Source: a virus
Length of the DNA: 35,780 nucleotides
Virus record (IMG/VR): IMGVR_UViG_3300031261_000045
Strand: one strand, 5' to 3'
Shown piece after piece: positions 8,175 through 31,922 of this stretch (position 1 is its first letter; each line of letters starts with the position of its first letter). Below the pieces are notes generated by a model. The model was not told the origin of the DNA, made no database searches, and worked only from the letters and a program-made list of their open reading frames with translations. Made by a program: the position numbers and the translations under genes.

Positions 8175-8192
8175 ATCGTTTATTTAAACGAT
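8175..8192 (-). other. Palindrome ATCGTTTATTTAAACGAT overlapping the stop codon of the giant gene
   Basis: Perfect 7-8 bp arms. The 220-bp gap before the next gene also contains the overlapping hairpins GTAACGGCC...GGCCGTTAC (8074-8106). Confidence 0.3.
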
Positions 8193-11100
8193 CCCAGAGG
8201 CAGATACCCGAGGATGTTATCGGTATACGGGATATTCGGGTCCCGCACGATCGAGACCGCCTGATCCATCGCGATGCCGGTGGCCGACACCCCGAGAATA
8301 CCGGTCGTGCGACTGACCGATGGGATGATGATCGTCCCGGCGATGCCAGAGCCATAGACGCCGAACGGATCGCGCCCGATCGGGAAGATCAGCGGCACCC
8401 TCAGCGCCGGTATCCGATACGGGAGATTGCCCGCATAAACGACGCTACCCGCTAGATGCGAGGCCGCGTTGGTGACGCCCACCACAACGGTGGCATGGAT
8501 CGGCGCAGTAACCGTGACCGAAGTGATCAGCCCGCTCGTGCTGACATTGTAGCTGCTGGCTGGTTGTAATATCGAATTGATCCTGACATCCACCGCGCCG
8601 AGCGTATTGACCACGTAGATTGTGGCGCCGCCCGGACTGAGGCCGGTGCTGAGCAGACGAACGGGACCCACCGAGGTGCCGAGCGTGCCGCGACGCAAGT
8701 GCCCCAAGGTGATCTGATTGCCGACCCGCACCGCAGCAAAATACTCGATGCGTTCGGCATCAATCCATATCACCCCTGGTCGATTGCCGAGCGGCAAGGG
8801 CAATGGATCGGCCGGTTGCAGTTTTGCCGCCAGGGGCTGGGTGTTCAAATCCACCACGATGCTTGTGGCATTGCCGGGGAGATCGCTATCCAGTCTGCCT
8901 GCGTAATACGGCGAACGCAGCCGATAGTCGAAGCTTTGATCGAGAACCGGAGCCATGCGCAGAACCGAGGGTGTGCGGGTGGCGTATTGATAGTGCAGGG
9001 TCGGCGTCGCGGGTAGCGCCGAAAATGTCATCATCACCACAAATCCACTGGTCTGGTCTGCAATGGCCAAGGCCGGAAGCGTCAAGGTCACATACGGCAC
9101 GGTGGCCAGTTTGGTTACAATATGATAATCATCATCCGGGACCAGGGTCAAGCCGTTCATGGTCACCAGCATCATGTTCGGTGCAACCGAGGCGGGTAGC
9201 AGATAGGTTTGGTGTGAGTTCAGCCCGGTCACCGGATAACTCGATGTGCGTATTTGCATGCTTCCGGCATTGCTGAAGGTTGTCGCGACAATTGTATCGA
9301 GACTGTTGATCGGCCGTCCCAAGAAGGGAAGCGTCTTACTGGTCAGGAAATCCGCATCCAGGGTGACCACGCCCGTGTTGCTCACTGTGTAATCCGGGGT
9401 CTGTCCCGCAAGGCTCACCACGGCGGCGATTTGATACGGATCAAAGGCTTGCGTTTCCAGTGCCACCAGCAGATTGCCATACACCACGAACTGGCCTGCG
9501 ATCATCGTCGAGGGGGTCTGCCCGACCGGCACCACGATATTGAGCGGATGCGTGCTGGGCGAACTGGACAAGGTGCAAATCGGGATCGCAGCGGTATAGA
9601 GGACGTTATTATAATAGACCGTGAGACGATCCGCGCTTGAGGTCGGAGCGATCGGCAGATACATCCAGGGCGTGGCTGGAGTGATCAGGCCATAGAATGT
9701 TTGTGGCGGAGTCAGACGCACCCCGCTCACCTCGATAATCGTTCCGGCGTGTGGCGGCATCGTCACCGGATCGGCGATCGTCAAAGTCCATTGCAAACCG
9801 GAATTGAATGCCAGGACCTGTTGTTGCACCGTAGTGGCTAGGGCAGCGCCACCCGGACAGACTAATTCTTGCTGATACGTTACGATACCGGACACCGGAT
9901 CGGTTACTGGATAATCGCTGTAGACTGGCAGATAACTGATGAGTGCGACATCGCTGCCCACAGACGGCGGGACGGAAAGCGTGACGCTCGTGCCATTGAC
10001 CTGATAGCCGCTGGACAACACAACGCCATTGACGATCACTGCGACATTACTGGCGAGCGTGGCCTGGGCGATGCTCAGCGCATTCACCCCGGAACTGAGA
10101 AATTGACTATCAGTGACCGGGGTCAGACCGCCGAAGCCGAACACATGCAAGACCACGCGAGTGACCGGGCTGGTTTGCAGCGTGGCATTGATCGTGACTG
10201 TGCGGCCAAAATGATCGACTGTGTAATCGGTGCCGAGGGTGGCGCGCAGGCCATTGCAATGCACCAGCACGGCTGCCGCTGATTGCGCCATGGTGGCAAA
10301 TGAAAACGTCTGGGTGCCGGTGAAGGCAGGCAGATCAAATCTCTTGATTTCGATCGGCGGTGCCCCGGCATTGGCCAAACTGGTGACGATGAGTTGCAAG
10401 CCATCATCGGCCGCATAGCCAATGCGTTCCTCGGGATGCTCCGCTTCGAGTGCCGGATCGCGCAGGCCGTATTCGCGCGGCTGGCCGGGGAGGGACGGAT
10501 TAACGACGGTTGTCTCTACGGTGGCGAAGCGATCGCCGCTGACGGTCAGGGCGACCTGTGAGGTCTCGCTGATCCCGAGTGTATCCCACCCGGAGGTGGG
10601 ATAATTGCTGACTGGATAGTCATTGGCATTGAATATAAAGCCATCGACCCAGCCGCCTTTGAATTGCAGGTTCAGCAGTTGCCCGAGATCGGTTGGCATC
10701 CCGGCACTCGGCTGGTAGTAGCTGGCTATCCGGTGCACTGCGCCGGATTGATCATTGGCTTCGTCAGTGGTGTTATCCCAGGGCTTGGTATCCCAGGTGG
10801 CGACGTCCCAGCCCCCGGCTGCGGCACTGCCGACCACGCGATCAAACAGCAGGGTGACCGTGACCTGCCGATCCAGGGCCGTCGCGGCGACCGTATTCTC
10901 GGCCGTGGAGACCGCCAAGGCGATTTGCTGGGCGGTTCCCCCATTGGCGCTCGCCAAGGCGCTGGCGGCCGTCCCAGCGGCAGCCATCGCGGCAATGATG
11001 GCCAGATAGTTGGTATACCAATTCACCCAAGGCTGGGTTTGCAGAATCGCAATATCAGTGAGGTTGGCGGGATCGAGCACGCGATAGACGCCCAGCCGCT

Positions 11101-14100
11101 GATCCCAATAGACTGGCTTGTCGAAATCGGTCGCCAGGGTGGGGGCGATATCGGTGGGGGGCGTGTAGCTCGTGGCATATTCGCGTATCTTCACGCGATA
11201 GGGTTTGACTTCATTGACAAAGTCAATCAGGTTGACGGTCTGATCGACTCGGGTGAACGGGGTTTCCAGCAACGGCACGTTGTAGCCCAGAATGCTCATG
11301 AAAGATGTTTTGAAAGCCCAATCAACATTGCTCTGCTGGGCATGGACAAAATCCACCATATTGAACCACAGCGTGTTGATCTCAGAGTCTTTCAGCACAT
11401 TGGCGTAGCGCAGGGCATCGAGCAGACTGCGCAATTCCCATGAGCCATCACGCAAGGTGACATCGGACGGGGCCAGCAGTTCCGCGCCGGGGGCCAACCA
11501 TGTCGGGGTTTCCGGCACCCGATCGGGATCGTATAATGCCTTGGCGAGTTGGATGGTGCCATTTTCGATCGCCACGGTGGTCCAACTGGCGCTCGTCGGA
11601 TCGAACTGGGTCCAGATAAACCCACCCGTTCCGGCATCATCGACAACCACCAGTTGATTGACCGGCTGGGTCCCTTCGCCGATATTGCGCGCGGCGATAG
11701 TGGCATAATGGATGACGGGCGGATCATTCACACTGTAACCGGAAGCGTAATAATCAGCATAGCTCAGGAACACATCGCTCGCGCTATCATCGGCAGCGGC
11801 CAGGATCAGATGGTATCGCTGGGTGCGTAACAAGCTGAATGGTTGGCCAGCGCCTTGATAGGTCCAGATCGCCCAGAACCCTGTGGGAGGTAGCACCAGA
11901 ACGCGATCGCCCAGGCTGAGGGTCGCAAGACTGTCGCGGACGGTCTCGGAGGCGACCTGCACTTCGTAGGTGGGAGCCAAGGCGAAGAAGGCATCGGCAT
12001 TGAGCAGCAGAAAGGCAATGATCTCGGCTGGGGTGGCCGTGCTATTGGCCTGCTGGAAGCTGGCGCTCGCGCGATTGGCTGCCACCCCATCGAAGGTCCA
12101 GATGCTCCAATGCGGGACGAAGCTGGTCAGACTGTTAACCAAAACCGTCATGGTTTGGCTGATCGGCGCGACGATCCCCGGCAGCAGGTTCCCGGCCCCG
12201 AGGAAATCCGCGCGCGCCAGTAGATTATCGCGCTCGGCCATCGAGTAAACCTGTACCATCCAGGCCCCGACCGGGGGCGGTTCCACCGGATAGGAGGCAT
12301 CGGTTTGTGTCCATTGGAGCGTCGCACTGGGCGCATCATAGCGGGTCAGGCTCGGCAACACCGCCGTGCGTTGCACGCAGATCGGCGTTTGCGCAAAGAT
12401 CGCGTTCACCGCATCGACGAAATTCTGCCGCGCGTCCAGCAAGCCCCCCCGTGCGCCCAGCATGCCGCTGATCTGAAACATGTTTTGACCAGACTGAATC
12501 CCGACATTGCGTTGCGCCGGGAGCGTGCCAGACGGCAAACTGCGCATCCCCTGCAAATCAACCGTGAACCCGGTCAAACTGTCGCGCAAATGCTGCCACA
12601 GATAAGCCGATGGCAACGAGGACGGATCATTCGGCCGCATCAGCGCCCATTGGTCATGCCGCTCCGCCAGATCGCGAATCGTGTGCTGCTGCACTTTCAT
12701 CACTGTGCTGCTATCATCCAACGCACTCGCGACCCCACTGATCAGCAAACCATTGCTGCTAATGGGCGCCATCCAAGCCAGACCGGCACTCGATGGATAG
12801 GTAATCGCCTGGATCACCGTGGCCACCGAAAGACTGCGAAACGAAACCACGGGTACAACCGTCAGCCCGCTGACCCAGAAGTAATACTTCAGCACATCGC
12901 CGAGGGTCGGATCATACACCACCCGCTCGACCCAGGAGGGCGCGTCCGTGAGATACACCCGTCCCAAGGACGAATCGGTTATGGCCTGGGCGATATAGGT
13001 CGTCGGATCGACGAGGCTTTCGATCCATTCATACACATCGACGCTGCTAAGTGGCGCCACACGGGTCCATTGCTGGATGCGATAGTGCAACTCGACCACA
13101 TCGCGATCGTTACTTGCGCCTAAGACATCGGTGGAGGGATCGATAAACTTGACGGTGGCGATATTCCACCACACCCGGCCGCGTTCATTCGGCCCCCACG
13201 GGTTGAGCGCAGCAGATGTCGCTCCGGCGTTATAGCGGGCCGGATCGAACGGGGTGAGATAATCGAGTTCCTTGCGGGCGCGGCCTGCAATTAAGCCAGC
13301 AACCGGATCGATCACGTCGATGGCGTTCACCACTGGCGTGTTGCTGCTCATGAGCATACCCGTGATCTGCGTCCCGGCTGCATAGATCAGCGTCTCGCTG
13401 ATCGTCGTCGGATTATTGCGCAGGGGCTGCTGGCGGGCGAGAGACCATTCGCCGCCATCCCATTGCTGCACCGTCCAGGGCATCGTGGCTGAACCGTCGA
13501 TCCAGGCGAGGTCGCCGATCATCCAATCGTAGCCCGCGACCATCAGCGTCGCCAGATCAGGAAACCGCATTTCGCGCAGAATGCGCACCATAGGCGCGGT
13601 GTCGGTGGGCAGATAGACGTAGCCCTGTGTGCTAACCGAATCGATATCGATGGTATTATTGGCGAAGTTGATGGCGATCAAGGTTGCGACACCATGCAGG
13701 TCCGGATAGGACAGACTGGGCGCATCAATGACGATGTAGCTACCAATGTCACTTTGTTGCAGATTGAGTGGTTGGCTGAGGGTCAGTCGCGTGGTCTGGG
13801 TCGCGGTTCGATCGGTGCTGCCGATGACGGGTGCGAGCACGCTGAGCAGCGCATTTGGGAGCGCCGCTGTGTTAAAGCTTTCCAGCACCGTAAAGGTTAG
13901 ATCGGCTCGTTCATACACCCAGAGGCGTTCTCCGGCGGGCAAGGTAGCAGTACCTGCCTGCAATTCTTGGCTGAACACCGTCGGCACGTCGGCCCAGGCG
14001 AACACTGTATTGGCGACATCGGTTAGCCGCACCGGCCCGGCAATCGGCAAGGCGGCAGGGACGAAGCCGCTCTGCATGGTGAAAAATTGGCTCGGGTTCG

Positions 14101-17100
14101 GCGGCACGTCATACCAGCGCGGATCGCCCGGCGCGAGCATGATCCAGTTCAGCGGCGCATTGGCGAGCGGCTGAAAACTGACAAACTGCGGATCGTCACG
14201 GGTATCGGTCTGCGCCAGTTGGAACGTCACGAACCCATCGGCCGGAGCCCCGTATTGGCCGACCTGAAAGCCCCATTCTTCGAGGAACGATAGCGTGCTG
14301 TTGCCGGATGCGCGGGTGCTGCGCATCAGTTTCTCGAACACGCCGGGGGCACCCTTCTGCTGGATCATTCCTTGATAGAACTCAAACTGCTCGACTTCGG
14401 CCAACAGGAGGTTATCCAGGTAATTACGCTCGGCATAGCCGATCACGTGACGTGCGTAGTCCCGCAGGTCGGCCACATCTGCCAGTTCGATGTCAAACAT
14501 GTAGCGCACATCATTGGCGGCTTTCTCGAAGCTAGAGGCCAAGGTGTTGCCGGTGATGACGAAGCCGGGTGCGTCCAGCCGTCCGCTCCATTGCTGCGCC
14601 CGATTGCAGATCAATTGCAGACGCGGCTGGCGGAGATTGAACAACGGCAGATAGATGGCATCGTCAAAGATGGTTACGTTATCAAAAACTAACAAATGTT
14701 CGATGGTGCTGAGATAGAGCCGGGCCAGGAAGATATCGGCATTCAGCGCGGTGATGGTCAGATCGCCATCCAGACGGCTGAGCAGGACGTTGTTTTGGCT
14801 GATCGGGGCGCCGACGCGATCGCACAGCCCGAAGAACCCCGTGCTGTTGTCCTCCACGTTATTGATCGTCCCGGTGAGCGTGCTGAATTGGATTTGCCGC
14901 TGTCCGGGCGACAGGGCGATGAAGTTGCCGGGCTGCCATTTGACCTGCGTCCAGGACAGGAATTCCAATGCCGCCATCGACCAGTTCAGGATCGCGCCGG
15001 ATTGCGGATCGGTGCCGCTGAAAATCCACCCCCGTGATACCAAGTAACGTTCATAGCCGAGCAGAAAATCGCCGACCGCCTGATAGGTGTTGAATATCGT
15101 GCCATAGGCGACTTGTTGGAGCGCCTTGAAACCGGTCGCATAGGTGACGATGCGTGGCGCCGGGATCGCGAATGGACTGAGATCGGGACGCGGGGTCCAG
15201 AAACTCAGTTCGAAGATCGGGCCGCTGGTGTGCGAGCGTTGGCACTGATACACCGAACCCTGCGAATTGCAGTAAGTATTCAGCGCATACCACGTGCTGG
15301 CTTGCCAGGGGCTGATCTTCGGTTCCGCGACGCTGGCGAGACTGATCACGCCTTTGACCGAGGCCGGATCAGGCGGGATGATGGTGAAGGAAGGGGTGCG
15401 CCCGTCATAGCCAATCACCCGCCACCCGGCGCCCGTCCACTCGACGATCACGCCGCTATAGACCTCGGTATCGTTGGGTGGCGATGTATAGAGAATTGTC
15501 TGCACATTCTCGGCAGGTAGCAAGCCGAAACTATCGCACACCGCCTGCACCGTGTTGCTCGATACGAACCCCGCCATCTGATGCAGCAGGCGCACATCCA
15601 AGCCGCGCACCGCATCGCCCAATTGACTGCTCGTGCCGCCCTGCGAAACCAGATAGTCGGCGAGCCATTGCGAGACGCCAGTGACCATCACAGGTTGGCC
15701 TGCCGCATCGCTCTCGCCATGCAGCAGATTGGTTGAGTCAGTGGAACGCAACAAAGTGTTCAGATCGACCCATTGATCAGCGATCAGGCCGCGCGTGAGG
15801 GTCGTCCAGCAGGTATCGGTGAAGCGGGCGGGCTTCATCAAAAAACTGACACAGGCCAGGGCATATTGAAACGACGGGGTGGTCCGCCAAAGCATCTCGA
15901 CCGGACCGAAATCGCCTGCTTGCCAGGGCTGGCTGGAGAGCGCGACGAGCCCCGAAGTGACCGTGACCAGACCGATTTGGGTGGGATCGCGCAGATGGCC
16001 CGTCGCATCGACCGGCAAGACCGCCAGCAGACCGGGCCGAGAATAGACCGCATCATAGCCCGCGCGCACGCCACCCGCGATATAGCCGTTCGTGGCGTCG
16101 ATCCAGACCCGATTGCTGGGGGTGTAAGGCGGCGCGCCATACTGCGTCACCCACCAGGACGGCTGAGTTTGAAAGCCCAGCATTTCCCAGGGACGCAGAT
16201 GTGGCGCATCGGTGCCGTAATAATCGTGATAGACCGCGCGCCAGCTTCCAGCCATCGGCAAGCCAAAGAGGTCGAGGCTGCCGCGATAGTTCCAGGTGAA
16301 AGGATTGCTCGGATCGTAGCCCAGCGCATTGCGATAATCCAGCCCGTTGTTCTGCGCCCAGATTTCGAAGAATGGCGCCAGCAGGCTGCTCACCTCGGCG
16401 TGGCTATAGCCGTTCGCGGGGGCGTAGAAATGCCCGCCACACCATTGCTGAATGTCAAACACCGGCCGCGCTTCGGTCTGCAACGCAGGATCGAGATTGG
16501 TGTAGATTAGTTGTTCCAGCGCCAGGATGATCGCATCGCGCCAGTCATTATTGGCGGGTGTGCGACTGCCGTCATGCCCCTGGATGAAAGTAATCGGCGG
16601 ATTATACAAGGCATCGACCAGCAGCGCAGGCACCACAGCCGGTTGGATACCCAGGGCCGAGGCCGTGGGCGGAATGAACCATTGGCCGCCCGCCATCGTG
16701 CTGAGCCAAAACGGCATCGCATTGGTATGGCCAATCTTCAAGGCCGCCAGGGTCGTCGCCACCCAAGTACTGGCAGGATCGATATCCACTCGCAGCACAC
16801 CACGATTGCATAGATCAACCAGCTTGCGGGCGAATTTGTTACGGAATCTGTTATATTCCTGATCGGCGTAGCGCAGTGCCAGGGTCAGATCGAATTGGCT
16901 GGACGACGCCAGCAGCATGGCCTTGAGCAGGGTCGCCCGATGCTGGAGAACCTGGGTGCCGAGAGACAGATCGCGCGGACTGTCGCGATAGTTGTTGCTG
17001 GCACTGGCCGTGCCGCTGAAATTGCTTTGCTGGCTGATCAAGTCGGCAAAATGCTGCTGGACATCGCTGTTCGACACCCGGCTAACCTCTTGCGCCAAGG

Positions 17101-18829
17101 GATTGGCTTGCAAATTGACCGGAATATCCCAAAAGCCATTGATCGCGATCGACTGGCTGGTGATGCCCGCATCGTGCCACGGCGAGTAATATTGCGGATC
17201 ACCCGCGCTACTATGCGTGGCGTAACGATAAAGCCCGATGATCGGCGTCGATCCGGCCAGATATTGTGTCGTGGCGATCGCATTGTCGTAGACAATGATA
17301 CCATTGCTGTCAAACACCAAGGGTTGCAAAATGACCGGATCGGCCGCCCCGGTGCCCAGCGCGTAGCCGAAAATGTGATCGCCATAAAACGTGCTGTTGG
17401 GATAACGAACCGGATCGTTCAAGGGCGCGGGGGTGGTGCTGAGATCATACAGCATGAACAATGGCGCCACATCCTCCGACCAAATCTGCTGGAAGGTCAT
17501 GGAAGTGCCTGCCGCGAACGGTCCCAGTAGCGCAGGCAAGGGTGTCGCCAGGGTGACCGCAGTGGATGCTGTGGTGATGACTGTAACAACCGGAATCGGC
17601 GTGGTTAACGTTTCGCTCGTGACACCGATCTCGACATCAAACCCCTTGACGGTGGTGGCGACCGGCAAGGTTCCCGCGAAGGTGAGGGTGCTGCCTTGCT
17701 GAGGGGTCGGTTTGTAGAGTGAGGCAGAGCATTGCCATAACACCAGATCGCGGACGAATTCGATGATTGGGCGCAAGGCTTGACGGCTGACGAAATCCAC
17801 TCCGGCCCACAGGAAGGTGGCGCGATGCACCCACAGATTGCGGCTCGACCATGCGTTGGTTTGCTGCGATGAGCGATCAATGGTGACGTATTGTGCCGCG
17901 AGACCCCGGATCAGCGTGCCATACGGGGTGAACCGGATGCTCTGACCGACGCCATCGATGATATACTGATCGAAGGCCGCTGCGTCCCAGGGCGTGGTAT
18001 CCCAGGCCGGACCACCCCAGCCTTCGGTCAGATGCAAGGTATCGTAGATACGCAGCAGCATCCCCGAGCTAAGCTGGGTGACCGGCGGACTGGGCGCGCG
18101 TGAGGGGGTAGTATCATTTGAGGTGAGTCCGGTCACATCGATGCTCGTCATGTTGGTCACGGTGCCGATAAAGTCGGCAATGCGCGTCACCATGACCACT
18201 GTGCCAAGAGCAGGCGCATCTGCGAAGATCAGACTGCTGCCATCCGGACTGAGGGTGGTTGGCATTGTTTCACCCGCAACATAACCGGTCGGGGTTTCCT
18301 GCGCGAGGGTGATCGAGGTCATGGATGGTGGCAGGGCGAACAGCGTGGTAACCCCGTCGCCGGTATAATACGTGATTGGAACGTTAATCGCCAGGACCGG
18401 CATATCCTCGGCGCCATCGCCAAACCAATAGTATTGCCGATAGTTCATCCAGGCGTCGATATTGATGGGCGGCGCCCAGCTATACAATGCGGTGTCGAAC
18501 AGCCGCTGCTGATTGCTGACGATCGCCCCGGTGTCATCGAGATAAGAAATGAAATCCGGATAGGTCAGGGCATTGCGAATCGTATTGCTGGTGGAATTGA
18601 GGCTCACCATGCCGGGTTCCAACTGGTAGAACGCGCGAGTCTGATCCGGTTCGGCGAGATAGAAATCGGTGGTCGGGTCGGCCCCGCTGATTTGGTGACC
18701 GATGTAACCATTGATACTGTCGGAAATTCCTGGCTGGAATAAGGCATCGACCGTGGCGCCGAAGAAGGCGGTCAGGTCGGCGGTTTGGTTGCAGCCGGGC
18801 AGCAGGGAGATGAAACGCCGTTTGGTCAT
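8180..18829 (-). CDS. Giant structural protein, 3549 aa. It sits where gp7/gpI wedge and tail-fibre proteins sit in P2/Mu/T4-like baseplate modules. No family recognised.
   Basis: Uninterrupted 10.65-kb ORF. Its ATG at 18829 abuts the stop of the gp6/J-like gene (TAAATG). Composition is rich in Thr/Ser/Gly/Ala/Val/Pro, typical of beta-rich fibre or wedge proteins. No catalytic motifs recognised by eye. Confidence 0.8.
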   Translation of the reverse strand: MTKRRFISLLPGCNQTADLTAFFGATVDALFQPGISDSINGYIGHQISGADPTTDFYLAEPDQTRAFYQLEPGMVSLNSTSNTIRNALTYPDFISYLDDTGAIVSNQQRLFDTALYSWAPPINIDAWMNYRQYYWFGDGAEDMPVLAINVPITYYTGDGVTTLFALPPSMTSITLAQETPTGYVAGETMPTTLSPDGSSLIFADAPALGTVVMVTRIADFIGTVTNMTSIDVTGLTSNDTTPSRAPSPPVTQLSSGMLLRIYDTLHLTEGWGGPAWDTTPWDAAAFDQYIIDGVGQSIRFTPYGTLIRGLAAQYVTIDRSSQQTNAWSSRNLWVHRATFLWAGVDFVSRQALRPIIEFVRDLVLWQCSASLYKPTPQQGSTLTFAGTLPVATTVKGFDVEIGVTSETLTTPIPVVTVITTASTAVTLATPLPALLGPFAAGTSMTFQQIWSEDVAPLFMLYDLSTTPAPLNDPVRYPNSTFYGDHIFGYALGTGAADPVILQPLVFDSNGIIVYDNAIATTQYLAGSTPIIGLYRYATHSSAGDPQYYSPWHDAGITSQSIAINGFWDIPVNLQANPLAQEVSRVSNSDVQQHFADLISQQSNFSGTASASNNYRDSPRDLSLGTQVLQHRATLLKAMLLASSSQFDLTLALRYADQEYNRFRNKFARKLVDLCNRGVLRVDIDPASTWVATTLAALKIGHTNAMPFWLSTMAGGQWFIPPTASALGIQPAVVPALLVDALYNPPITFIQGHDGSRTPANNDWRDAIILALEQLIYTNLDPALQTEARPVFDIQQWCGGHFYAPANGYSHAEVSSLLAPFFEIWAQNNGLDYRNALGYDPSNPFTWNYRGSLDLFGLPMAGSWRAVYHDYYGTDAPHLRPWEMLGFQTQPSWWVTQYGAPPYTPSNRVWIDATNGYIAGGVRAGYDAVYSRPGLLAVLPVDATGHLRDPTQIGLVTVTSGLVALSSQPWQAGDFGPVEMLWRTTPSFQYALACVSFLMKPARFTDTCWTTLTRGLIADQWVDLNTLLRSTDSTNLLHGESDAAGQPVMVTGVSQWLADYLVSQGGTSSQLGDAVRGLDVRLLHQMAGFVSSNTVQAVCDSFGLLPAENVQTILYTSPPNDTEVYSGVIVEWTGAGWRVIGYDGRTPSFTIIPPDPASVKGVISLASVAEPKISPWQASTWYALNTYCNSQGSVYQCQRSHTSGPIFELSFWTPRPDLSPFAIPAPRIVTYATGFKALQQVAYGTIFNTYQAVGDFLLGYERYLVSRGWIFSGTDPQSGAILNWSMAALEFLSWTQVKWQPGNFIALSPGQRQIQFSTLTGTINNVEDNSTGFFGLCDRVGAPISQNNVLLSRLDGDLTITALNADIFLARLYLSTIEHLLVFDNVTIFDDAIYLPLFNLRQPRLQLICNRAQQWSGRLDAPGFVITGNTLASSFEKAANDVRYMFDIELADVADLRDYARHVIGYAERNYLDNLLLAEVEQFEFYQGMIQQKGAPGVFEKLMRSTRASGNSTLSFLEEWGFQVGQYGAPADGFVTFQLAQTDTRDDPQFVSFQPLANAPLNWIMLAPGDPRWYDVPPNPSQFFTMQSGFVPAALPIAGPVRLTDVANTVFAWADVPTVFSQELQAGTATLPAGERLWVYERADLTFTVLESFNTAALPNALLSVLAPVIGSTDRTATQTTRLTLSQPLNLQQSDIGSYIVIDAPSLSYPDLHGVATLIAINFANNTIDIDSVSTQGYVYLPTDTAPMVRILREMRFPDLATLMVAGYDWMIGDLAWIDGSATMPWTVQQWDGGEWSLARQQPLRNNPTTISETLIYAAGTQITGMLMSSNTPVVNAIDVIDPVAGLIAGRARKELDYLTPFDPARYNAGATSAALNPWGPNERGRVWWNIATVKFIDPSTDVLGASNDRDVVELHYRIQQWTRVAPLSSVDVYEWIESLVDPTTYIAQAITDSSLGRVYLTDAPSWVERVVYDPTLGDVLKYYFWVSGLTVVPVVSFRSLSVATVIQAITYPSSAGLAWMAPISSNGLLISGVASALDDSSTVMKVQQHTIRDLAERHDQWALMRPNDPSSLPSAYLWQHLRDSLTGFTVDLQGMRSLPSGTLPAQRNVGIQSGQNMFQISGMLGARGGLLDARQNFVDAVNAIFAQTPICVQRTAVLPSLTRYDAPSATLQWTQTDASYPVEPPPVGAWMVQVYSMAERDNLLARADFLGAGNLLPGIVAPISQTMTVLVNSLTSFVPHWSIWTFDGVAANRASASFQQANSTATPAEIIAFLLLNADAFFALAPTYEVQVASETVRDSLATLSLGDRVLVLPPTGFWAIWTYQGAGQPFSLLRTQRYHLILAAADDSASDVFLSYADYYASGYSVNDPPVIHYATIAARNIGEGTQPVNQLVVVDDAGTGGFIWTQFDPTSASWTTVAIENGTIQLAKALYDPDRVPETPTWLAPGAELLAPSDVTLRDGSWELRSLLDALRYANVLKDSEINTLWFNMVDFVHAQQSNVDWAFKTSFMSILGYNVPLLETPFTRVDQTVNLIDFVNEVKPYRVKIREYATSYTPPTDIAPTLATDFDKPVYWDQRLGVYRVLDPANLTDIAILQTQPWVNWYTNYLAIIAAMAAAGTAASALASANGGTAQQIALAVSTAENTVAATALDRQVTVTLLFDRVVGSAAAGGWDVATWDTKPWDNTTDEANDQSGAVHRIASYYQPSAGMPTDLGQLLNLQFKGGWVDGFIFNANDYPVSNYPTSGWDTLGISETSQVALTVSGDRFATVETTVVNPSLPGQPREYGLRDPALEAEHPEERIGYAADDGLQLIVTSLANAGAPPIEIKRFDLPAFTGTQTFSFATMAQSAAAVLVHCNGLRATLGTDYTVDHFGRTVTINATLQTSPVTRVVLHVFGFGGLTPVTDSQFLSSGVNALSIAQATLASNVAVIVNGVVLSSGYQVNGTSVTLSVPPSVGSDVALISYLPVYSDYPVTDPVSGIVTYQQELVCPGGAALATTVQQQVLAFNSGLQWTLTIADPVTMPPHAGTIIEVSGVRLTPPQTFYGLITPATPWMYLPIAPTSSADRLTVYYNNVLYTAAIPICTLSSSPSTHPLNIVVPVGQTPSTMIAGQFVVYGNLLVALETQAFDPYQIAAVVSLAGQTPDYTVSNTGVVTLDADFLTSKTLPFLGRPINSLDTIVATTFSNAGSMQIRTSSYPVTGLNSHQTYLLPASVAPNMMLVTMNGLTLVPDDDYHIVTKLATVPYVTLTLPALAIADQTSGFVVMMTFSALPATPTLHYQYATRTPSVLRMAPVLDQSFDYRLRSPYYAGRLDSDLPGNATSIVVDLNTQPLAAKLQPADPLPLPLGNRPGVIWIDAERIEYFAAVRVGNQITLGHLRRGTLGTSVGPVRLLSTGLSPGGATIYVVNTLGAVDVRINSILQPASSYNVSTSGLITSVTVTAPIHATVVVGVTNAASHLAGSVVYAGNLPYRIPALRVPLIFPIGRDPFGVYGSGIAGTIIIPSVSRTTGILGVSATGIAMDQAVSIVRDPNIPYTDNILGYLPLGSFK

Positions 18830-21800
18830 TTAATTTGCGATCCGCAGGTTGGTCGCGGTGTTGGACGCGATCAGAACGATATCTGCGACCTGTGCCACGC
18901 TGATGAAAATCTCGTTGGCTTGGCACGGTATCTCGAACCCGTCCCCGAATGCGCCATTCGCGATCACTGGCACGATGACGACAGACAGGATTTGCCCGAC
19001 CAGTTGCTGATGGATATACGCGGCCAATTCGGTAAAGTAGAACGTTTCGCCGAAATCCCAGTTGCTGACGGCAAAGAACACATTGATTGCGGCAAGGATG
19101 CTGCTCTGGATTTCGCCATCGCTGACTGCCGAATTGGTCGCCCGGACGACTTTGAATTTGGCTTGCAGGGCCGGATCGGCAGCGGCACCGAACAGGAATT
19201 GATATTGCACGGGCCGCCACACGATCGTGTCGGAGAACATCTTGAAATCTTCCAACCCGGAAAACGCCAGACTGAGGTCCAGTTCGGTTGGCGGATAGGG
19301 TTGCTGGGCGGCAATCGCGCCCGCTGTGATCCATTGCCGCACCGCACTGTCATACGAGTAGGTCAGGCAAAAAATATCGACGATATTGGTGCTGGCCGGA
19401 TCGATCCGATGATCACTCGGGGCGTAATGTTGCCAATGAAAGAATAACGCATCGCCACTGGGCGTGGCGCTGGCCGAGGCGCTGATCCAATTGGCCGCGA
19501 CATTCGGACCGCGTCCGATGGCGAAGCGATAGCTGCTCGTGGTGTCCTGCGTCCAGCCGGTGAGTTGATACACCCAAAAGGTTTCATTCGCTAATGGGGT
19601 GACCGAAGAGACGACCTGAAAGCCGACCGTGCCGAGCGGCGGGGTATCCGCTTGCAGCAAACCATCATTGTCATACCCGTTCACTGTGTAATATGGTTGG
19701 TCATACGGAGGCACTGCTGTGTTGCTCCAGAACAAATAGTTTGTCGCCGGGCTGCCGGAGATGAGGTTGTAAAACGTGTCGGGCCGATCCGGCACGCCAT
19801 CACCGTTACTATCAGCAAACAAGACCGTGGTGCGCCGGGGTTCGGCCGTGCCATCCGGATAGGTCCAGAGCCGATCGATGGTGAGGCCGTAATCGATTCC
19901 CAACGCATAGCCCCTCGGGTCGTTCAGATTGGGATTGATCCGCAGCACGCTGAGATTATCGGCCGTGGCTTCGCCCGTGGTCTGCGCCAGGGTGCGCACG
20001 CCATTGTCGTACCATTCGACCGCGCCGAGGCTTTCGAACACATAGCGCAGGCCGCGCGTATTGATCCGCCACACGCCGCCGACAATGTTAACCAGCCCGA
20101 TCAGCACCGTGGTCCCATTCGGCCCGCCCAGCGTCGCCTGAGGCGCGCCAAAACTGTTCTGCGCCGTGCCCAGAACCCAAAGCCCGGTGGCATAATCGTA
20201 GAGCAGCGAGAAGGACAGCCGCAGATCGAGATAGCCCGAGAGCATATTGACCGACAACCCGCTCGGGGTGTTCAGGGTCGATGGCACCGTGGTAACCACC
20301 TGGGGCAGTACAGCGAGCAGGATCGCCCCGCTTGGCAGGCTTTGCGACAGCGTCACTGGCCCTGCCGTATTGACCACCAAGGGGGTATCGATCGCATTGC
20401 CGAGGCTGACCACCGAAACCCAAACCAGGGTGCTGTTGACACTGAACTGTAACAGCGCCCCGACCTGGATCAACCCGGCCGCAGCGGGCAGGCTGGGGAG
20501 GGCGACGCGGCCCCGATTGGCATCATGGATGAACGTCCCGCTGGTGTTGAATAATGCGGCACTGGACGGCGCCCAGGTAAAGGGCGCACCGGCCTGATCG
20601 AGCGGCGCCCGGATGGTGTTGTTCCGGACATTCTGCAGCAGCACGTCGCGGATCAAATTCGCTGTGGTATACTGATTGATCGCAGGCACGATATAATCAT
20701 TGAAGATTTGTAATGAGGTGCGATTGAGCGTAGTGGGCACTTCGAAATAGGTATTCGCCGGATCGCTGAAGAACAGGCCATCCTCGCCGAAGATCGACAG
20801 GTCCTGATAGGTGCCGGTCGGATCATGCAGATCGATGTAGCGCGATTGGCCACTATAGACTCGGTTGACGGCGTTGATCTTGACCGCCAGATTGGAGGAC
20901 AACGGAAAGGTATTGTAGTCCTGACCGGACACCATCCGGTTCTGCGTACCATAGACCTGGGGGGCGCGCTGGCGGATTTGCTCGATCGTTTCGGCTGCAC
21001 TGGCATTCGCCACGGTCTCCAGCAGCGAAAACGTCAGATACACCAGCTTGGGCGATCCGGCGGTGTTGAAATATTGGATCGGCAGTGTGATGTTGCTGAT
21101 TTCGCTCGGCTGGATTTGGTAGGTCAGACCGTTGGACACCCGGTAGGTCACCGCAATATTGCCGACCGGGGCGAGACCGAAACTGCCATCCGAGAACCGG
21201 AGGGTGACCTGATCGTTATCGCGGGTCAGCACCGAGTAGATTGTGCGTACGGTATTGGCGAGATTGTTATAGGTGATATTATTGTTGAAGATCGCCGGGA
21301 CTTTGGTCCAATCGATTTGCACGGCGCCATTGTCATCGACGGTATCCACCCAGATATCGTTATTATTGACGTTGCTTACCCCCAGATCGAGCAACTGGTT
21401 CTGCACCGGGGTGGCGATCTGGAACACCTGTTGGGCGGTGTTCCCTTGTTTGAACAGCAGGAAGAAACCGGTGCGCGTGCTGGCATAACCATTACTGTCG
21501 TTCAAATAATACAGTTGCAGGGCATTGGCTGGATTGGGATCGCGTTCGAACAGAGTGCCATTGTCGCTGAAATCGCCATTGCAAATCTCGAACGCCATCA
21601 CGGTGCCGCTGACCGTGGCGCTGAAACTCAGGCTGGAGGCGGAAGCCAAACCGTTGATCCGGTACAGGTCGGTGCTCACATTCGCCACCGTGCCGGAGGC
21701 TAACGGCAGGCCGAACGGATTGGTTTGGATGAACGCGGCGTTCATGACCAGGGTGAATTGTTCTTGCCAGTTGATATTATTCGGGTCATTCCAGACCACC

Positions 21801-25152: not shown

Positions 25153-25160
25153 CTATTTAG
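25153..25160 (-). promoter_or_regulatory. CTAAATAG motif overlapping the spike stop codon, ~25 nt upstream of the 58-aa gene
   Basis: Minus strand reads gatCTAAATAGacacgatataacGGAGAAGatcATG. Confidence 0.4.
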
Positions 25161-28100
25161 ATCGTCATCGCCGCATAGGTGACGTTTGGCAGGTCTTGCG
25201 CGGTCCAGGCATAATTGACCGATTCGAACGCGCCTGCCCGCGATCCCAATGATCCCCAGTATGCGGTCGGGAATTGGCCGCGAACCAAGGGTCCGGCCAC
25301 TACCACCACAACATGGCCGTGGATATCGGGCTGGGCTTGCTGACTGCCATTGAGACCGGCCACAACCAACTGCCCGGCTTGCGCGCTCGCTGCCGCTGCG
25401 ACCCCGTTGCTGAGCGGACTCCACTGGCCGCCAGCTTTCAGCGCTGCGGTAATCGCATTGGCATTGCCTGTGATGGTGACCCCTAGAAGACTGCCCACGG
25501 CCTGAACAAACCCACTGCAATTGCCGGTATGGGCCGGGTAGGCTTGGATACAGGCGGCTTGGACGCGATTGGATGCCTGTGGATTGGACCCCAAGTTCAC
25601 AGCAGCGTAGAGCCGGGCGTTATCTGGACTGGCGATATCAAAGGGAATGATGCGTTCCCCGGCGGGTTGACCGGGTGCTTGGCTGTAAACTTGTATTCCG
25701 GCTATGCCGGTATAGTTCGGATTGCCGATTTGCACGATGCCAAGATAAATGGCGGCATGATCGCGATAGGTGCCATTGTCGTTAAAGATGGCAATCGGCT
25801 GATTGGCCGCCCAGGTGGTGTAATCGGCATTGCCTTTTTTCCATTGCGTTGGATTTGACAAGTTGGAGAGCAGGGAGGCGGGTGATGAGGTCGGCCCGAC
25901 GAAGCCATTCGCGTTGGGTTTGAGGGCCGCCAGACCGCCAGGGGTCTGGTCGCACTCGCCGCTCCCGCCAACTGGCGCATTGATCACGGGGGGTGGCACG
26001 ACCGCTGGGCGCCCCCCGCCCAGTGTCGCCGAGCTTGCTGGTTGGGTGGCCAGATTGACGGGCTGTGGTGCGGCCATGGCGGCAGCCGCGCTCGCAGTTG
26101 GATCGAGAGGGGTGGCTGGATTGCCTGTGGTGTTGCGATCACAGGGAGCAGGTAAACCATATTGACCGGAATAGGCTTTGGCTTTGGCATCGGCGATGGC
26201 GCTGAGACTGGCCACCACCTCGGCACAACTGCGGTTGCGAAAGATCGAAGGATTGGCGGCAGCGGCGGCCGGGAAGAGGCTTGCGGCACTATCGTTCGGC
26301 GTGTTTTGGGCTGCCGCGATCAGTTTCGGGCCGCCACTCGACCCGGCAAAATGCATAATGTAGAGTTGCCCCGGTGTCGGATTGTTGATGCCTTGTTTTT
26401 TCAGCAGCGCGGCATTGTCATTGATGAACTGACCACCCATCAAGGCGTTACTTTGCGCCTCATTAATCTGGCTGAACCCGACGTTATATTGGTTACCGTA
26501 TTTCGTCACCATGGCGCCCCAGGTGCCTTGGGTGAATTGATACAAACCAGTCGCGCTACTGGTTTTGGCGCCGATACCGGGCTGAAAGCTCGATTCCATA
26601 TCGGCAAACGCCAACATTGTGGCGGGATCGGCATTGGTTTTCGTGCAGGCTTGCATGATCGCGTTGAAGACTTCGGTCGAAATCGGCTTGGTGCCTGCGG
26701 CTCCCGGACTACACCCGGTATCATTGAGCGTGCCATCAGCATTGACGTTCGATGACGAGCCTGCGCCAAACGTTCCGGTGGCATTGATTTCGGTGCAACT
26801 GGTGGGCGGCGGCGGAATGTCGCCATTGGGATGATCGTGCCAGGGTTCATGCGTTGGCATCCGACTGACGATGGTGTTGATCTGGGCACCGGCTTTCCAC
26901 AACGGAATCGTGTCATTAACGAAGCTTTGCTTGGCGTCGCCGTGCATCAGGCCGACTGGCAGGACCGGCGGGGTGATGGTGACCGGCGAATCGGGCATGG
27001 CGGGCGGGGCCGCCCCGGTCATGTCGAGAACCGACGTGCCATCCCGCATTTGCTGACTTCCGGCCCGCTGAGACATCTGCAAACCGGATTGTAACCGCAG
27101 ATTGCCCCCGGCCAGGACGTTCAGATCGGCGGCAACATTGACACTGCCTGCGCCGCCTGCCTGCATGATGAGATCGACCGCCGAGGTGACCTGAAAATCG
27201 GAGGCGGCGATATTCAGAATATTGCCTGCCGAGGTCAATTCGATATTGTTATTGGCATTCAAGTTGATTTTCGCGTTGGCCTGGAGTTGCACATCAGCAC
27301 GCGCGGCGGCGGTGATATTGGCTCCGGCACGCATATGAATATTGCCGCCCGCATCGAGCAAGATGTCGCGATCAGCGCGAATATTCAGGTCCTTTTCGGC
27401 CCGCATACTGATCGAGTCAGCGGTATAGATATCCACCCCGGTATCGGAAACTTCGATCCAACTGTTGCCGTTTTTGGAATTAATGTAGATGTAGCCTGAG
27501 GTTTCGTGAATCAACACCTGAGCGCCCGAGCGACTGCGCAGGCGGATGAATTCATTTGCGGTATTATCATCCACATGCATAGTATTGCCGCGTGGCGACA
27601 AAAAGCCGAACACCTGGGAGGGCGATTCACGCCGGGCTGAGGTGGAAGCCGAGCCCCGTTCGGTATCGCTGGTCAGACCCTCGATGGCGAGTCCATTGGC
27701 CAGCGGTTCAAAACGCGGGCGGCGCGGATTGGTCGTGTCGCCCACACTGGCTTTGTTATACTCAACCACCGGGGCGATTTTCAGTGGGGTACCTGGTTCG
27801 GTGGTGACATTGACCGCGATGCCCGGCACCATCCAATTCATGTTTTGTTGATAGGTGCAGCCCAGCCAGTAGCCGCGCGACATATCGTTATTGGCGAAAA
27901 ACACCACGACCTCGTTATTGAGATCGGGCGGCACCGCCCAGAAGCCATAGGATTGCTGCGATCCATCCATGGTGATGCTGGATTTGGACAGTTTGGTCGG
28001 ATCGGTCGATCCGGCAAACGGACTGACATAACTCACCGTGATCCAGGAGCCGGGATCAGTCGGATCGCCACCACCCAGTTCGGGAATATAGACCCCAAGC

Positions 28101-28210
28101 CGCCCCATGCATTGCGCGTCGGTGTTCTGTTTGACAAAACCGATATAGATCGCCATAGGCAACGATTGACTGGACGGCTGAAAGGCGTTGGGAACGCGAG
28201 AACCGATCAT
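25157..28210 (-). CDS. Baseplate central spike, gp5/VgrG-like, with lytic transglycosylase and CHAP-like domains (1017 aa)
   Basis: N-terminal OB-fold pattern IGFVKQNTDAQCMGRLGVYIP...PGSWITVSYVSPFAGS...GFWAVPPDLNNEVVVFFANNDMSRGYWLG parallels T4 gp5 FVGVVEDVMDPDRRGRVRVRIYG...LPWARVMQP...GTWVIGHFFDGDLQYPVVMG. The middle region has a repetitive beta-helix segment (NIHMRAGANITAAARADVQLQANAKINLNANNNIELTSAGNILNIAASDF...). An SLT-type motif is present: ADMESSFQPGIGAKTSSATGLYQFTQGTW (the ES...GLxQ family 1 lytic transglycosylase signature). The C-terminus has a Cys...His pair (GNCSGFVQAV ... PDIHGHVVVVVAG) resembling CHAP amidase/peptidase motifs. The start overlaps the upstream stop (ATGA). Confidence 0.75.
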   Translation of the reverse strand: MIGSRVPNAFQPSSQSLPMAIYIGFVKQNTDAQCMGRLGVYIPELGGGDPTDPGSWITVSYVSPFAGSTDPTKLSKSSITMDGSQQSYGFWAVPPDLNNEVVVFFANNDMSRGYWLGCTYQQNMNWMVPGIAVNVTTEPGTPLKIAPVVEYNKASVGDTTNPRRPRFEPLANGLAIEGLTSDTERGSASTSARRESPSQVFGFLSPRGNTMHVDDNTANEFIRLRSRSGAQVLIHETSGYIYINSKNGNSWIEVSDTGVDIYTADSISMRAEKDLNIRADRDILLDAGGNIHMRAGANITAAARADVQLQANAKINLNANNNIELTSAGNILNIAASDFQVTSAVDLIMQAGGAGSVNVAADLNVLAGGNLRLQSGLQMSQRAGSQQMRDGTSVLDMTGAAPPAMPDSPVTITPPVLPVGLMHGDAKQSFVNDTIPLWKAGAQINTIVSRMPTHEPWHDHPNGDIPPPPTSCTEINATGTFGAGSSSNVNADGTLNDTGCSPGAAGTKPISTEVFNAIMQACTKTNADPATMLAFADMESSFQPGIGAKTSSATGLYQFTQGTWGAMVTKYGNQYNVGFSQINEAQSNALMGGQFINDNAALLKKQGINNPTPGQLYIMHFAGSSGGPKLIAAAQNTPNDSAASLFPAAAAANPSIFRNRSCAEVVASLSAIADAKAKAYSGQYGLPAPCDRNTTGNPATPLDPTASAAAAMAAPQPVNLATQPASSATLGGGRPAVVPPPVINAPVGGSGECDQTPGGLAALKPNANGFVGPTSSPASLLSNLSNPTQWKKGNADYTTWAANQPIAIFNDNGTYRDHAAIYLGIVQIGNPNYTGIAGIQVYSQAPGQPAGERIIPFDIASPDNARLYAAVNLGSNPQASNRVQAACIQAYPAHTGNCSGFVQAVGSLLGVTITGNANAITAALKAGGQWSPLSNGVAAAASAQAGQLVVAGLNGSQQAQPDIHGHVVVVVAGPLVRGQFPTAYWGSLGSRAGAFESVNYAWTAQDLPNVTYAAMTI

Positions 28211-31200: not shown

Positions 31201-31617
31201 AATCATCGCATCGAATGAAGCGGCAGCAGGCCGATTATCCACGGGCAGGGCCTTGATCGGCGGGGCCGGGTCGGTGGCGGGGGCTTCCGGCGATTTCGGC
31301 AGGAAATCGGTCTGCAAGCCGGGCAATCGGTTATCGGAAAAGCTATCGGCCGTGGCGCCCTCGACCGGCAGCCCGTATTGCTGCGAGGTATCGACATTGG
31401 CGCTATTGCCCAGGCTCAGGGTGAGCGGGGCGGCGACCGGCTGGGGCACAAAGCCCGGTGGATTAGGCACCACTGCCGGAGCGACCACCTCCTGCTCGGG
31501 GCTGAATGGTTTGATCACCATGGTCGGGATGGCGGCGCTGTTGGTCAGACTGCTGGGGGTGCCATCGGTCGGAAAAATCTGCAACGGCGCAATGCCGGGG
31601 CGAAAAATATCGGCCAT
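28207..31617 (-). CDS. Large baseplate-hub or tape-measure-like structural protein with a C-terminal lytic transglycosylase-like domain (1136 aa)
   Basis: The N-terminus is Pro-rich, the middle is beta-rich, and the C-terminus carries KESGNNPAQGNNGLGFVGQYQTGAAYL ... LLAAAHIAGPTGA resembling the ES..NP...G(L/F)xQ ... AYNAG blocks of SLT domains. It is translationally coupled on both sides (ATGA overlaps). Which tail component it is remains unassigned. Confidence 0.55.
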   Translation of the reverse strand: MADIFRPGIAPLQIFPTDGTPSSLTNSAAIPTMVIKPFSPEQEVVAPAVVPNPPGFVPQPVAAPLTLSLGNSANVDTSQQYGLPVEGATADSFSDNRLPGLQTDFLPKSPEAPATDPAPPIKALPVDNRPAAASFDAMIAGMQGNALNSVYQPTYHIRFYLAREGDMVAQTGATDISTLNQKMQTIPQVTIAESGVTGFNIKSLEIDTVAASTARTLYMTPSVFTLVVTDPLGSSFLDSFPAAANKLAISDFTKCSYYLEVQFKGYDENGNYVNPAKDFSNGGVWTYSIQITKIDVKLNEGGGVYTITLMTNESAALIDQYNSIHYAPSMTPFRVVGDTLGALWDDYATKVNKAREDAQGVDKSKNLPLLDISIVSFPIDKGPASTIGKDPKNFKLKAQEPSKSPSKADDMVNGKYSPVVNPQASTQNFIMSSIQHTEEGHTITIDDLPNNPGQDLDSNTTNGCKFRESVLFSVEADSQITGHDKDGTSLNYTRKVVYNVRSRASQSAIISRTQTDNAKDPAVQRQMIQKLIDNQYLNKRYDFVFTGLNTEVLEFNYDFNFMFQALTPSYAGARQGMDSVSSNAANNPASQCPTYDRDTANIDLTVGSGKQNVTVDNTGGTPVTAACVATPANVANSPSLASLVQANGIGAQTAALFGGSTSVASTLAALPANARSTVEANGVAGSVAASLTGNVPGTTPRSLGNTPMAASNNASGTTSTPKTLSEVAQGSNKVFVEDLLTALASKTSANQNLPILIPFWPSTQGAKIASGKDGFSGQYTRDQSVAGAILAQEDPTFMTKFNQIEMQIRGDPFWLGQSNLQRQIALRAETPATFVDLPEWSGGGQLFYLKFRYPSAVGEDFKPVLKDSPIFGGLYTVTRINNFFTDGTFKQTIMANRELLLDPARITGSSNTPGSSANTNGGAGSSAQMTQSATPASASTLQSLTEGTSPSTAAIPTALQAADTTTVGNLTADQTAALKASLGAKESGNNPAQGNNGLGFVGQYQTGAAYLADQGYTTAASAIAAKSDSSVLQQDSSWTGKDGIHSLSDYLANPTVQNQVMDTGMQRNYQSLVNQGVITGDTTPNQTAGLLAAAHIAGPTGAANFIKSGANPQDANGTTPASYFSLGANSFSQGSS

Positions 31618-31922
31618 CAGGCGCCCGTTACGCGGCGCAGATAATCATGCTGCGGCACCATGATCTGCAATCCTGGCAGGAAGTTCCAGATCGGGTCGCC
31701 GCGCAGAAACGGATTGCGCTCGCAGAATACCCACCAGAAGGCGGGCGACGCATACAAGTCATAGGACAATCGGTCCGGGCGATACTGATGTTGCGGCAGT
31801 AACGTGTAAAGCTGATCGGTGCCATCCGGCGGCACCGCGCGAAAGACAAAGCGGCCGATTGCCCAACTTTTCTGTGGAGTCGCGCTATAGGGCGAATTGG
31901 CGGGATAGGTGACAACACTCAT
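31617..31922 (-). CDS. LysM-like tail protein X / gp53-like protein (101 aa from ATG 31922; ORF opens at TTG 31928)
   Basis: YRPDRLSYDLYASPAFWWVFCERNPFLRGDPIWNFLPGLQIMVP fits the Phage_tail_X/LysM pattern (GDTLDSIA..YYG ... ANP ... L.aG..L.lP). GAGGA SD is present. It is the first gene of the minus-strand operon. Confidence 0.5.
   Translation of the reverse strand: MSVVTYPANSPYSATPQKSWAIGRFVFRAVPPDGTDQLYTLLPQHQYRPDRLSYDLYASPAFWWVFCERNPFLRGDPIWNFLPGLQIMVPQHDYLRRVTGA

Follow-up and report, generated by a model that had tools for sequence, protein, structure and literature searches.

The window analysed here is the whole 35,780-nucleotide (nt) stretch of the IMG/VR virus record IMGVR_UViG_3300031261_000045, and its minus strand carries, directly behind a gene for a gp6-like baseplate wedge protein, one open reading frame (ORF) of 3,549 codons with an ATG start. 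This giant gene belongs to a large family of genes found in Rak2-like jumbo myoviruses, members of which were detected in virions, and its product probably serves as a peripheral component of the baseplate wedge.

The giant gene, its position and its family

The minus-strand block in which the giant gene lies is a T4-type baseplate module. It comprises a gp53-like gene, a gene for a hub-related protein of 1,136 amino acids (aa), a gp5-like gene, small ORFs, a gp25-like gene, the gp6-like gene and the giant gene itself (Table 1). The small ORFs within the block gave no family matches in Pfam and PHROG scans. The gp6-like protein matches phrog_10646 (“baseplate wedge subunit”) with E = 0 and phrog_219 with E = 6e-25, and is 34-45% identical to the upstream-gene product in all relatives compared. 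In the other frames over the interval of the giant gene the longest ORF has at most 272 aa. With a stop-codon expectation of approximately 0.035 per codon, taken from the local GC content of approximately 0.58, the probability of finding 3,549 open codons by chance is approximately 1e-55 by our own arithmetic.

On the minus strand the junction between the two genes reads ...GCA AAT TAA ATG ACC AAA..., the stop codon of the gp6-like gene abutting the ATG of the giant gene. There is no clear Shine-Dalgarno sequence upstream of this ATG. Because stop and start abut and a clear Shine-Dalgarno sequence is missing, termination-reinitiation coupling of the two genes is plausible. The corresponding junctions elsewhere are similarly tight, with a 1-nt overlap in Atu_ph07, adjacent genes in Phosso, a 6-nt gap in PA5oct, a 3-nt gap in the marine contig L006 and a 4-nt overlap in the metagenomic contig L009.

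An earlier reading made from the letters alone (the sequence-only reading) had described a single 10.65-kb ORF that begins at TAAATG directly after the gp6/J-like gene, in the slot occupied by gp7 or gpI in simpler baseplates. The ORF list and the junction sequence confirm the ORF and its start, and the assignment of the slot, which holds gp7 in T4, gpI in P2 and gp48 in Mu, is in agreement with the synteny reported below. The same reading had called the protein rich in Thr, Ser, Ala, Gly and Val, with few charged runs and no catalytic motif. This is borne out as well: T+S+A+G+V make up 42% and D+E+K+R 13% of the residues, and Pfam scans found no catalytic domain. We further note that Lys (0.9%) and Glu (2.3%) are rare, though the DNA has only approximately 58% GC.

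The giant protein aligns to phrog_10938, a profile of 3,324 positions, with 1,263 bits, and all 400-aa tiles through aa ~2600 match this profile. With tblastn, relatives were found in 93 phage records, all of them Rak2-like jumbo myoviruses, at 27-34% identity over aa 1-~2700. Their hosts include Agrobacterium, Sinorhizobium, Pseudomonas, E. coli and other enterobacteria, and marine hosts. The homologs in isolated phages measure 4,449 aa (Atu_ph07 gp180), 4,555 aa (Phosso XYS97451), 3,857 aa (PA5oct gp355, which is gp128 in its paper) and 3,323 aa (121Q gp582). An exhaustive HMMER search with an N-terminal profile, built on the first 560 aa, gave 1,557 cluster representatives at E<=1e-3, 840 of them at E<=1e-30; word-indexed searches yielded 9, 14 and 2 relatives and badly under-represent the family compared to the exhaustive search. 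The family is abundant: its clusters at 50% identity number at least 1,557, and IMG/VR contains over 565 of its loci. Among the 143 representatives listed the median length is 3,553 aa and the maximum 7,307 aa, and 114 out of 143 have at least 3,000 aa. The statement that the ORF is among the largest seen in phage-like loci therefore holds for phages generally, but not within its own family.

The synteny with the wedge gene is universal. In IMG/VR, 79 out of 79 loci having at least 3 kb of upstream sequence show the end of a gp6-like gene closely upstream of the giant gene. The gene order gp25-like, gp6-like, giant was found in the marine and JGI contigs as well as in Atu_ph07, PA5oct, 121Q and Phosso. 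Of the IMG/VR ORFs, 18 (2,981-3,841 aa) are complete, 61 are cut off where the locus ends and 1 has an early stop.

The window protein is colinear to aa ~3470 with three family members (P0020, P0022 and P0024) at 42-45% identity. The nearest isolate shows 34% identity and the nearest metagenomic proteins 42-50%, with up to 67% in the best segment of the closest relative, L015 (IMG/VR UViG_3300047335_000127). From the N- to the C-terminus the identity to L015 is 67%, 57%, 44% and 39%, and the gp6-like proteins of both loci are 61% identical. The window protein is thus of average size and fairly divergent within a family that is known but has no characterised function, an ordinary copy with nothing unique to it.

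Module anatomy of the giant protein

The best-conserved part of the protein is aa 1-~150, with 45-67% identity to close relatives. Within it, aa 1-35 form short helices in the monomer model with low confidence (pLDDT 54-69). Strong conservation together with low confidence in a monomer model is common in segments that need a partner in order to fold. Because aa 1-35 are near-invariant, yet modelled with low confidence, we regard them as a candidate partner-binding peptide, an indirect hint towards a role like that of gp7 or gpI. A lipoprotein signal (LLPGC, aa 9-13) was considered for the same segment and rejected, as its hydrophobic stretch does not have the necessary length and the consensus of the family does not retain Cys13.

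The N-terminal module can be separated from the rest of the chain. Three Tara Oceans contigs (L006-L008) carry it as a gene of its own with 799 aa (the product P0007 corresponds to aa 1-523), which is followed by a second gene, of at least 6,689 aa and colinear with the window protein from aa ~511 onwards (e.g. L008, 6663-19062). At the junction of this split, stop and start overlap as TAATG behind a Shine-Dalgarno sequence, and the three contigs that show this come from three assembly accessions. Both genes together come to about twice the length of the window protein. The split is rare: the fused form is present in 79 out of 80 IMG/VR loci. The sequence-only reading had suggested a fusion of wedge and fibre functions. 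That the marine relatives separate aa 1-523 from the rest speaks for this suggestion, but the comparisons of sequence and fold yielded no similarity to gp7, gpI or gp10.

A different kind of break is found in L009 (JGI metagenome 3300005253), where gene calling divided the homolog into two parts of 1,429 and 2,064 aa. Here an in-frame TAA (14288-14290) lies within continuous conserved sequence (...KIKFKT, stop, RGAIQSIEQIINGVYS...). We rejected this break as a domain boundary, as it consists of only one in-frame TAA inside continuous homology; the TAA could be a sequencing error, mark a pseudogene or be subject to readthrough or recoding.

The long body that follows the N-terminal module contains a CBM5/12-like module (chitin-binding type 3). 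The copy in the window is weak (E 0.0029, 18.1 bits compared to the Pfam cut-off of 26.2). At the aligned position 9 out of 13 family members have a Pfam match, the best with 1.7e-12. A comparison of the family profile to 1ED7, the chitin-binding domain of chitinase A1, gave E 2e-4. Single family members carry DUF642 or SPRY domains.

A further module is the β-sandwich at aa 142-232. Its fold matches the solved anchor domains of T7 gp17 (residues 1-149), the CBA120 TSP4 N-terminus and Carin-1 Dpo31, with Foldseek E-values that are not significant. The Pfam family PF03906 (Phage_T7_tail) had no match in the window protein and matched one out of eight homologs at E 0.035, which is not significant. 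Self-BLAST of the giant protein found no internal repeats; the divergent repeats of the C-terminal region are seen by profile self-alignment only (probability 93%, E 2.5e-7). The clearest copy, aa 2923-2966, is homologous to the module at aa 142-232 according to both hhalign and hmmsearch. The conserved island “ERIEY...RGTxGT” (aa ~3343-3385) matches this module weakly (probability 46-53%) and probably is a variant of it, and aa 3396-3450 match weakly too. The anchor modules, which resemble the N-terminal part of T7 gp17, and the CBM5/12 module are structural-protein-like domains; their absence would have spoken against the sequence-only reading.

Only approximately a quarter of the sampled family shares the C-terminal region (aa 2801-3474), which evolves faster than any other part, with 20-40% identity to close relatives. 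No counterpart of aa 3475-3549 was found among the 159 family sequences compared. Over the whole protein the identity falls gradually from the N- to the C-terminus without a mosaic breakpoint, and a complete lack of relatedness between relatives is confined to the last ~75-100 aa. A comparison of C-terminal variability had been proposed earlier as a check. It shows that the C-terminus indeed diverges fastest, but gradually, without the sharp breakpoint that is usual where receptor-binding domains have been swapped.

An AlphaFold model of aa 1-1200, calculated with 34 sequences, reached a pLDDT of 80.4 and a pTM of 0.77. The modelled chain is compact; helix accounts for 25% and strand for 18% of it, and helices prevail in aa 561-1100. 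An earlier model of aa 1-560 (15 sequences) was poor (pLDDT 54.7) and its Foldseek search uninformative. Apart from the β-sandwich, the remaining ~1,000 confidently modelled residues have no relative in the PDB, the baseplate chains of T4, phiKZ, P1 and contractile injection systems included. Fibre features (coiled coil, β-helix) were not seen in the model of aa 1-1200, and no fibre families of Pfam or PHROG were found in the tiles of the giant protein. The extended β-structure deduced earlier from the amino acid composition therefore fails for the first third. A role as tape measure was also considered and dismissed, since the compact modelled part has no more than 25% helix and the predicted tape measure of Atu_ph07 is a separate protein, gp701.

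Table 1. Positions of the giant gene, its modules and the surrounding baseplate genes in the window.
Feature	Position	Strand	Remark
Giant ORF	8180..18829	-	3,549 aa + stop; member of phrog_10938 (“virion structural protein”)
TAAATG junction	18827..18832	-	gp6-like stop 18830-18832, giant start 18827-18829
N-terminal module, aa 1-~525	17255..18829	-	separate 799-aa gene in marine relatives
Candidate partner-binding peptide, aa 1-35	18725..18829	-	near-invariant L10, P11, T16, F22, F23, T26, D28, F31
β-sandwich module, aa 142-232	18134..18406	-	fold of podophage fibre/tailspike N-terminal virion-anchor domains
Conserved body, aa ~526-2800	10430..17254	-	common to all isolated relatives; variable stretch aa ~2100-2300
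CBM5/12-like (chitin-binding type 3) module, aa ~1175-1204	15218..15307	-	
C-terminal region, aa 2801-3474	8408..10429	-	divergent ~80-110-aa repeats
Clearest C-terminal module copy, aa 2923-2966	9932..10063	-	hhalign probability 85-90%, E 1.5e-6; hmmsearch i-E 1.4e-6
Conserved island GVIWIDAERIEYF...LRRGTLGTS, aa ~3343-3385	8675..8803	-	invariant where C-terminus is shared
Last ~75 aa (3475-3549)	8183..8407	-	unique
gp6-like baseplate wedge gene, 1,128 aa	18830..22216	-	phrog_10646, phrog_219; constant upstream partner
gp25-like wedge/sheath-initiator gene, 140 aa	22228..22650	-	Pfam GPW_gp25, 2e-8
gp5-like hub/lysozyme	25157..28210	-	
Hub-related protein, 1,136 aa		-	T4-type baseplate module
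gp53-like gene	31617..31928	-	

Neighbouring genes

Downstream of the giant gene the synteny with the isolated relatives ends. The 188-aa and 840-aa genes that follow in the window have no match in the loci of relatives and are thus not conserved partners; in PA5oct a gp10-like gene lies two positions downstream of the giant gene. A possible ORF of 65 codons (7950-8147, minus strand) begins 33 nt past the giant stop, has GGAGG 10 nt before its ATG and extends over the TTG that is listed as start of the 188-aa ORF (7394-7960). Small genes are present at the same position in Atu_ph07 (gp179, 42 aa) and PA5oct (gp356, 41 aa), compared by position alone.

The 840-aa protein (4825-7347, minus strand), two genes downstream, is a homolog of the Major Vault Protein (MVP) of eukaryotes. 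It matches Pfam MVP_shoulder with 4.7e-18 and has a Vault_3 repeat, and in solved vault structures residues 343-722 of MVP correspond to its aa 347-716 (E 3e-15). The only matches in phage records are LR756500, LR756501 and LR756503 (“uncultured phage”, 462-735 kb), at 37% identity over 96% of the length. The MVP-like gene is not found beside the giant gene in isolated relatives. Viral MVPs were previously described from gut phages (bioRxiv 10.1101/2023.11.10.566534).

On the plus strand, four separate stretches of a 944-aa ORF (32038-34872) match phrog_12791, “sigma factor for late transcription”, with 2.9e-62; the ORF also weakly matches a thymidylate-synthase PHROG. Late sigma factors of the T4 gp55 type are several times shorter than 944 aa, and the ORF may represent a repeat or a fusion.

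The wedge module itself tolerates insertions. In L015 (8871-9514) approximately 640 nt lie between the end of the gp6-like match and the giant start, and in 121Q (L004, 4646-5410) a gene for an HNH endonuclease is inserted between the gp25-like and the gp6-like genes.

A possible role in the baseplate wedge

Virion presence of the family rests on the relatives PA5oct, CBB and phAPEC6. In CBB, 21 peptides of CBB_236, which adjoins the wedge protein CBB_237, were found by mass spectrometry (MS) of the virion (PMC5259590). In phAPEC6 the 381.9-kDa protein gp245, which adjoins the wedge protein gp244, gave 17 peptides (PMC7247149). The annotation of PA5oct gp355 carries the note “ESI-MS/MS”. Peptide coverage in virion MS is low, with 7-8% for CBB and phAPEC6. 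The published descriptions of the relatives that were consulted give no function or location for the giant protein, its gene being named only as the “largest ORF” of the genomes (PMC5259590).

In T4, P2 and Mu as well as in the type VI secretion system, gp7, gpI, gp48 and TssG represent the third chain of the (gp6)2-gp7 core, which is conserved among wedges. Within wedge proteins the gp7-like part lies laterally, binds fibres and varies strongly, a focal point of redesign by evolution (PMC8894135). Of the baseplate proteins, the list of T4 core homologs given for CBB contains just gp6, gp25, gp53 and a lysozyme with gp5 domain, and none of gp7 to gp12 is included (PMC5259590). Domains of the gp10-like and anchor type are docking sites in the branched fibre systems of related phages (PMC9700779), and the fibres and spikes of RaK2 consist mainly of podovirus-like peptides according to the bioinformatic analysis of its authors (PMC3622015). 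Separate fibres or tailspikes are known from phAPEC6 (three) and Atu_ph07 (four), and phiKp24 has fourteen depolymerases.

We consider it rather likely that the giant protein is a peripheral wedge protein in the gp7 position, with functions in fibre docking and glycan contact. We infer its location, copy number, binding to gp6 and fibre docking from the synteny, the virion detection of relatives, the absence of gp7 to gp12 from the T4 core homologs listed for CBB, the separable N-terminal module, the conservation gradient, and the sugar-binding and anchor modules. The gradient of conservation from the N- to the C-terminus would fit an orientation of the protein from the inside to the outside.

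The giant protein could then be pictured as a virion component of approximately 380 kDa that is co-produced with the gp6-like wedge protein and represents the “largest protein” typical of Rak2-like jumbo myoviruses. It would form the third, outward-facing chain of each wedge and be present in six copies per virion. The N-terminal module (aa 1-~525), and above all its first ~35-140 residues, may dock on the gp6-like pair, while the body of 2,200 residues might build the bulk of the baseplate periphery and bear the one CBM5/12 module. The outward C-terminal array of T7-gp17-N-like modules could provide sockets for the separate fibres or tailspikes, contacts to the cell surface, or both. A more far-reaching version, which we put forward only tentatively, is that one chain of 3,000-7,000 residues, largely with folds that have no solved relative, replaces the T4-type periphery from gp7 to gp11. 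Its short, conserved N-terminal peptide would take the place of gp7 in the core bundle together with two gp6-like chains, and its tandem anchor modules would act as sockets or pseudo-oligomeric adaptors for branched fibres and tailspikes.

Several observations weigh against a peripheral wedge role. Profiles of 5 and 68 sequences, compared by hhalign to T4 gp7, P2 gpI and Mu gp48, gave probabilities of at most 1.1%, and neither Pfam and NCBIfam scans of eight N-terminal modules at E<=10 nor PHROG links pointed to a gp7 or gpI family. The N-terminus ISLLPGCNQTADL resembles the start of gpI, SRLLPTGSSPLE, and LQLLPSGLAWN of gp48 by eye only, with no statistical support; an “LLP...” motif as a mark of gpI and gp48 was likewise not substantiated by Pfam, NCBIfam (E<=10) or hhalign against P2 gpI and Mu gp48. 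The model of aa 1-1200 has no fold similarity to solved gp7-like chains, and one must keep in mind that structure prediction covers these 1,200 out of 3,549 aa. No published structure places a family member in the baseplate: the tail map of phAPEC6 is at 25 A (PMC7247149), and the phiKp24 study modelled capsid and tail only, with the baseplate not resolved. Finally, the PHROGs category of phrog_10938 is “head and packaging”, which is a label and not evidence.

The giant protein might instead be a receptor-binding adhesin or giant fibre that is attached to the baseplate without a wedge role and serves as the main determinant of host range. The conserved CBM5/12 module of the family and the binding-type domains DUF642 and SPRY in single members could be read in this way, as could the fast evolution of the C-terminal third, with its last ~75-100 aa wholly different between relatives, and the fibre gene that P2 and Mu carry after gpI and gp48. 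We regard this as unlikely, since approximately 2,700 aa are retained at 27-34% identity across very different hosts, unlike in receptor-binding proteins, and there is no sharp mosaic breakpoint; on the same grounds the earlier suggestion that it determines the host range is, for the complete protein, doubtful. In addition, the modelled third (aa 1-1200) is compact and globular rather than fibrous, and phAPEC6, Atu_ph07 and phiKp24 have separate genes for fibres or tailspikes. Less probable still is a virion protein located elsewhere, i.e. in sheath hairs or whiskers, as a decoration of collar or sheath, in the head or internally, for which the adjacency to gp6 would be mere gene order. The PHROGs category would agree with such a location. 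CBB, phAPEC6 and Atu_ph07 bear hair-like fibres with genes unassigned, and an Ig-like module decorates the tail tubes of other phages. The tight synteny with the wedge gene in 79 out of 79 loci would, however, be difficult to account for if the protein belonged to the head or neck, and whiskers set CBB apart from other Rak2-like phages (PMC5259590). The MS peptide coverage of 7-8% is compatible with few copies, which is weak evidence.

That the giant ORF is an artefact of assembly, sequencing error or a missed frameshift, with several genes merged into one, is in our view excluded, even though L009 and the marine relatives were called as two genes. Single colinear ORFs of 3,323-4,555 aa exist in four independently sequenced isolates, and the 18 complete ORFs from IMG/VR and the lengths of the listed representatives are in agreement with this. 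These homologs dispose of the frameshifts or assembly artefacts that the sequence-only reading had named as a possible refutation. Peptides of the 382-kDa product were found in phAPEC6. The two exceptions have explanations of their own, as the split in L009 is one in-frame TAA and the marine split is a true boundary elsewhere in the chain, with its Shine-Dalgarno sequence and TAATG in three assemblies.

The family represents the largest gene of a widespread lineage of jumbo phages, including candidates for phage therapy (PA5oct, relatives of Rak2 and phiKp24, and 121Q-like coliphages). Should the giant protein indeed be a wedge protein in the gp7 position, it would illustrate how far the variable third component of the wedge can expand. 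It would then represent a platform for branched fibre systems, which bears on the understanding and the engineering of host recognition.

A comparison with known systems shows both likenesses and differences. The CBM5/12-like module shares the motif W..n..Y..g..V.Y.G..Y.c...HtS with CBM family 5/12, as in the chitin-binding domain of Bacillus circulans chitinase A1; unlike in CBM5/12 enzymes, it sits in the middle of a structural protein without a catalytic partner domain. In contrast to podophage fibres, in which they head a trimeric fibre, the anchor modules lie within one giant chain, one of them near the N-terminus and others in tandem near the C-terminus. As in T4 gp7, P2 gpI, Mu gp48 and TssG, the gene directly follows the gp6/J-like gene, often with translational coupling, and the module of the window shows no further protein that might fill this indispensable role. 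In length the protein exceeds T4 gp7 by a factor of 3.4 and gpI by a factor of 20, and its position is the only defining feature that it has in common with gp7 and gpI. Compared to the giant proteins of Atu_ph07 and Phosso, the window protein is without their insertion of approximately 1,000 aa between aa 1553 and 1780, and unlike the isolated relatives it has variable stretches of its own at aa 140-310 and 2100-2300. With the Rak2-like giant proteins as a group (Atu_ph07, Phosso, PA5oct, 121Q, CBB_236 and phAPEC6 gp245) it shares homology over aa 1-~2800, a similar length and the same gene position.

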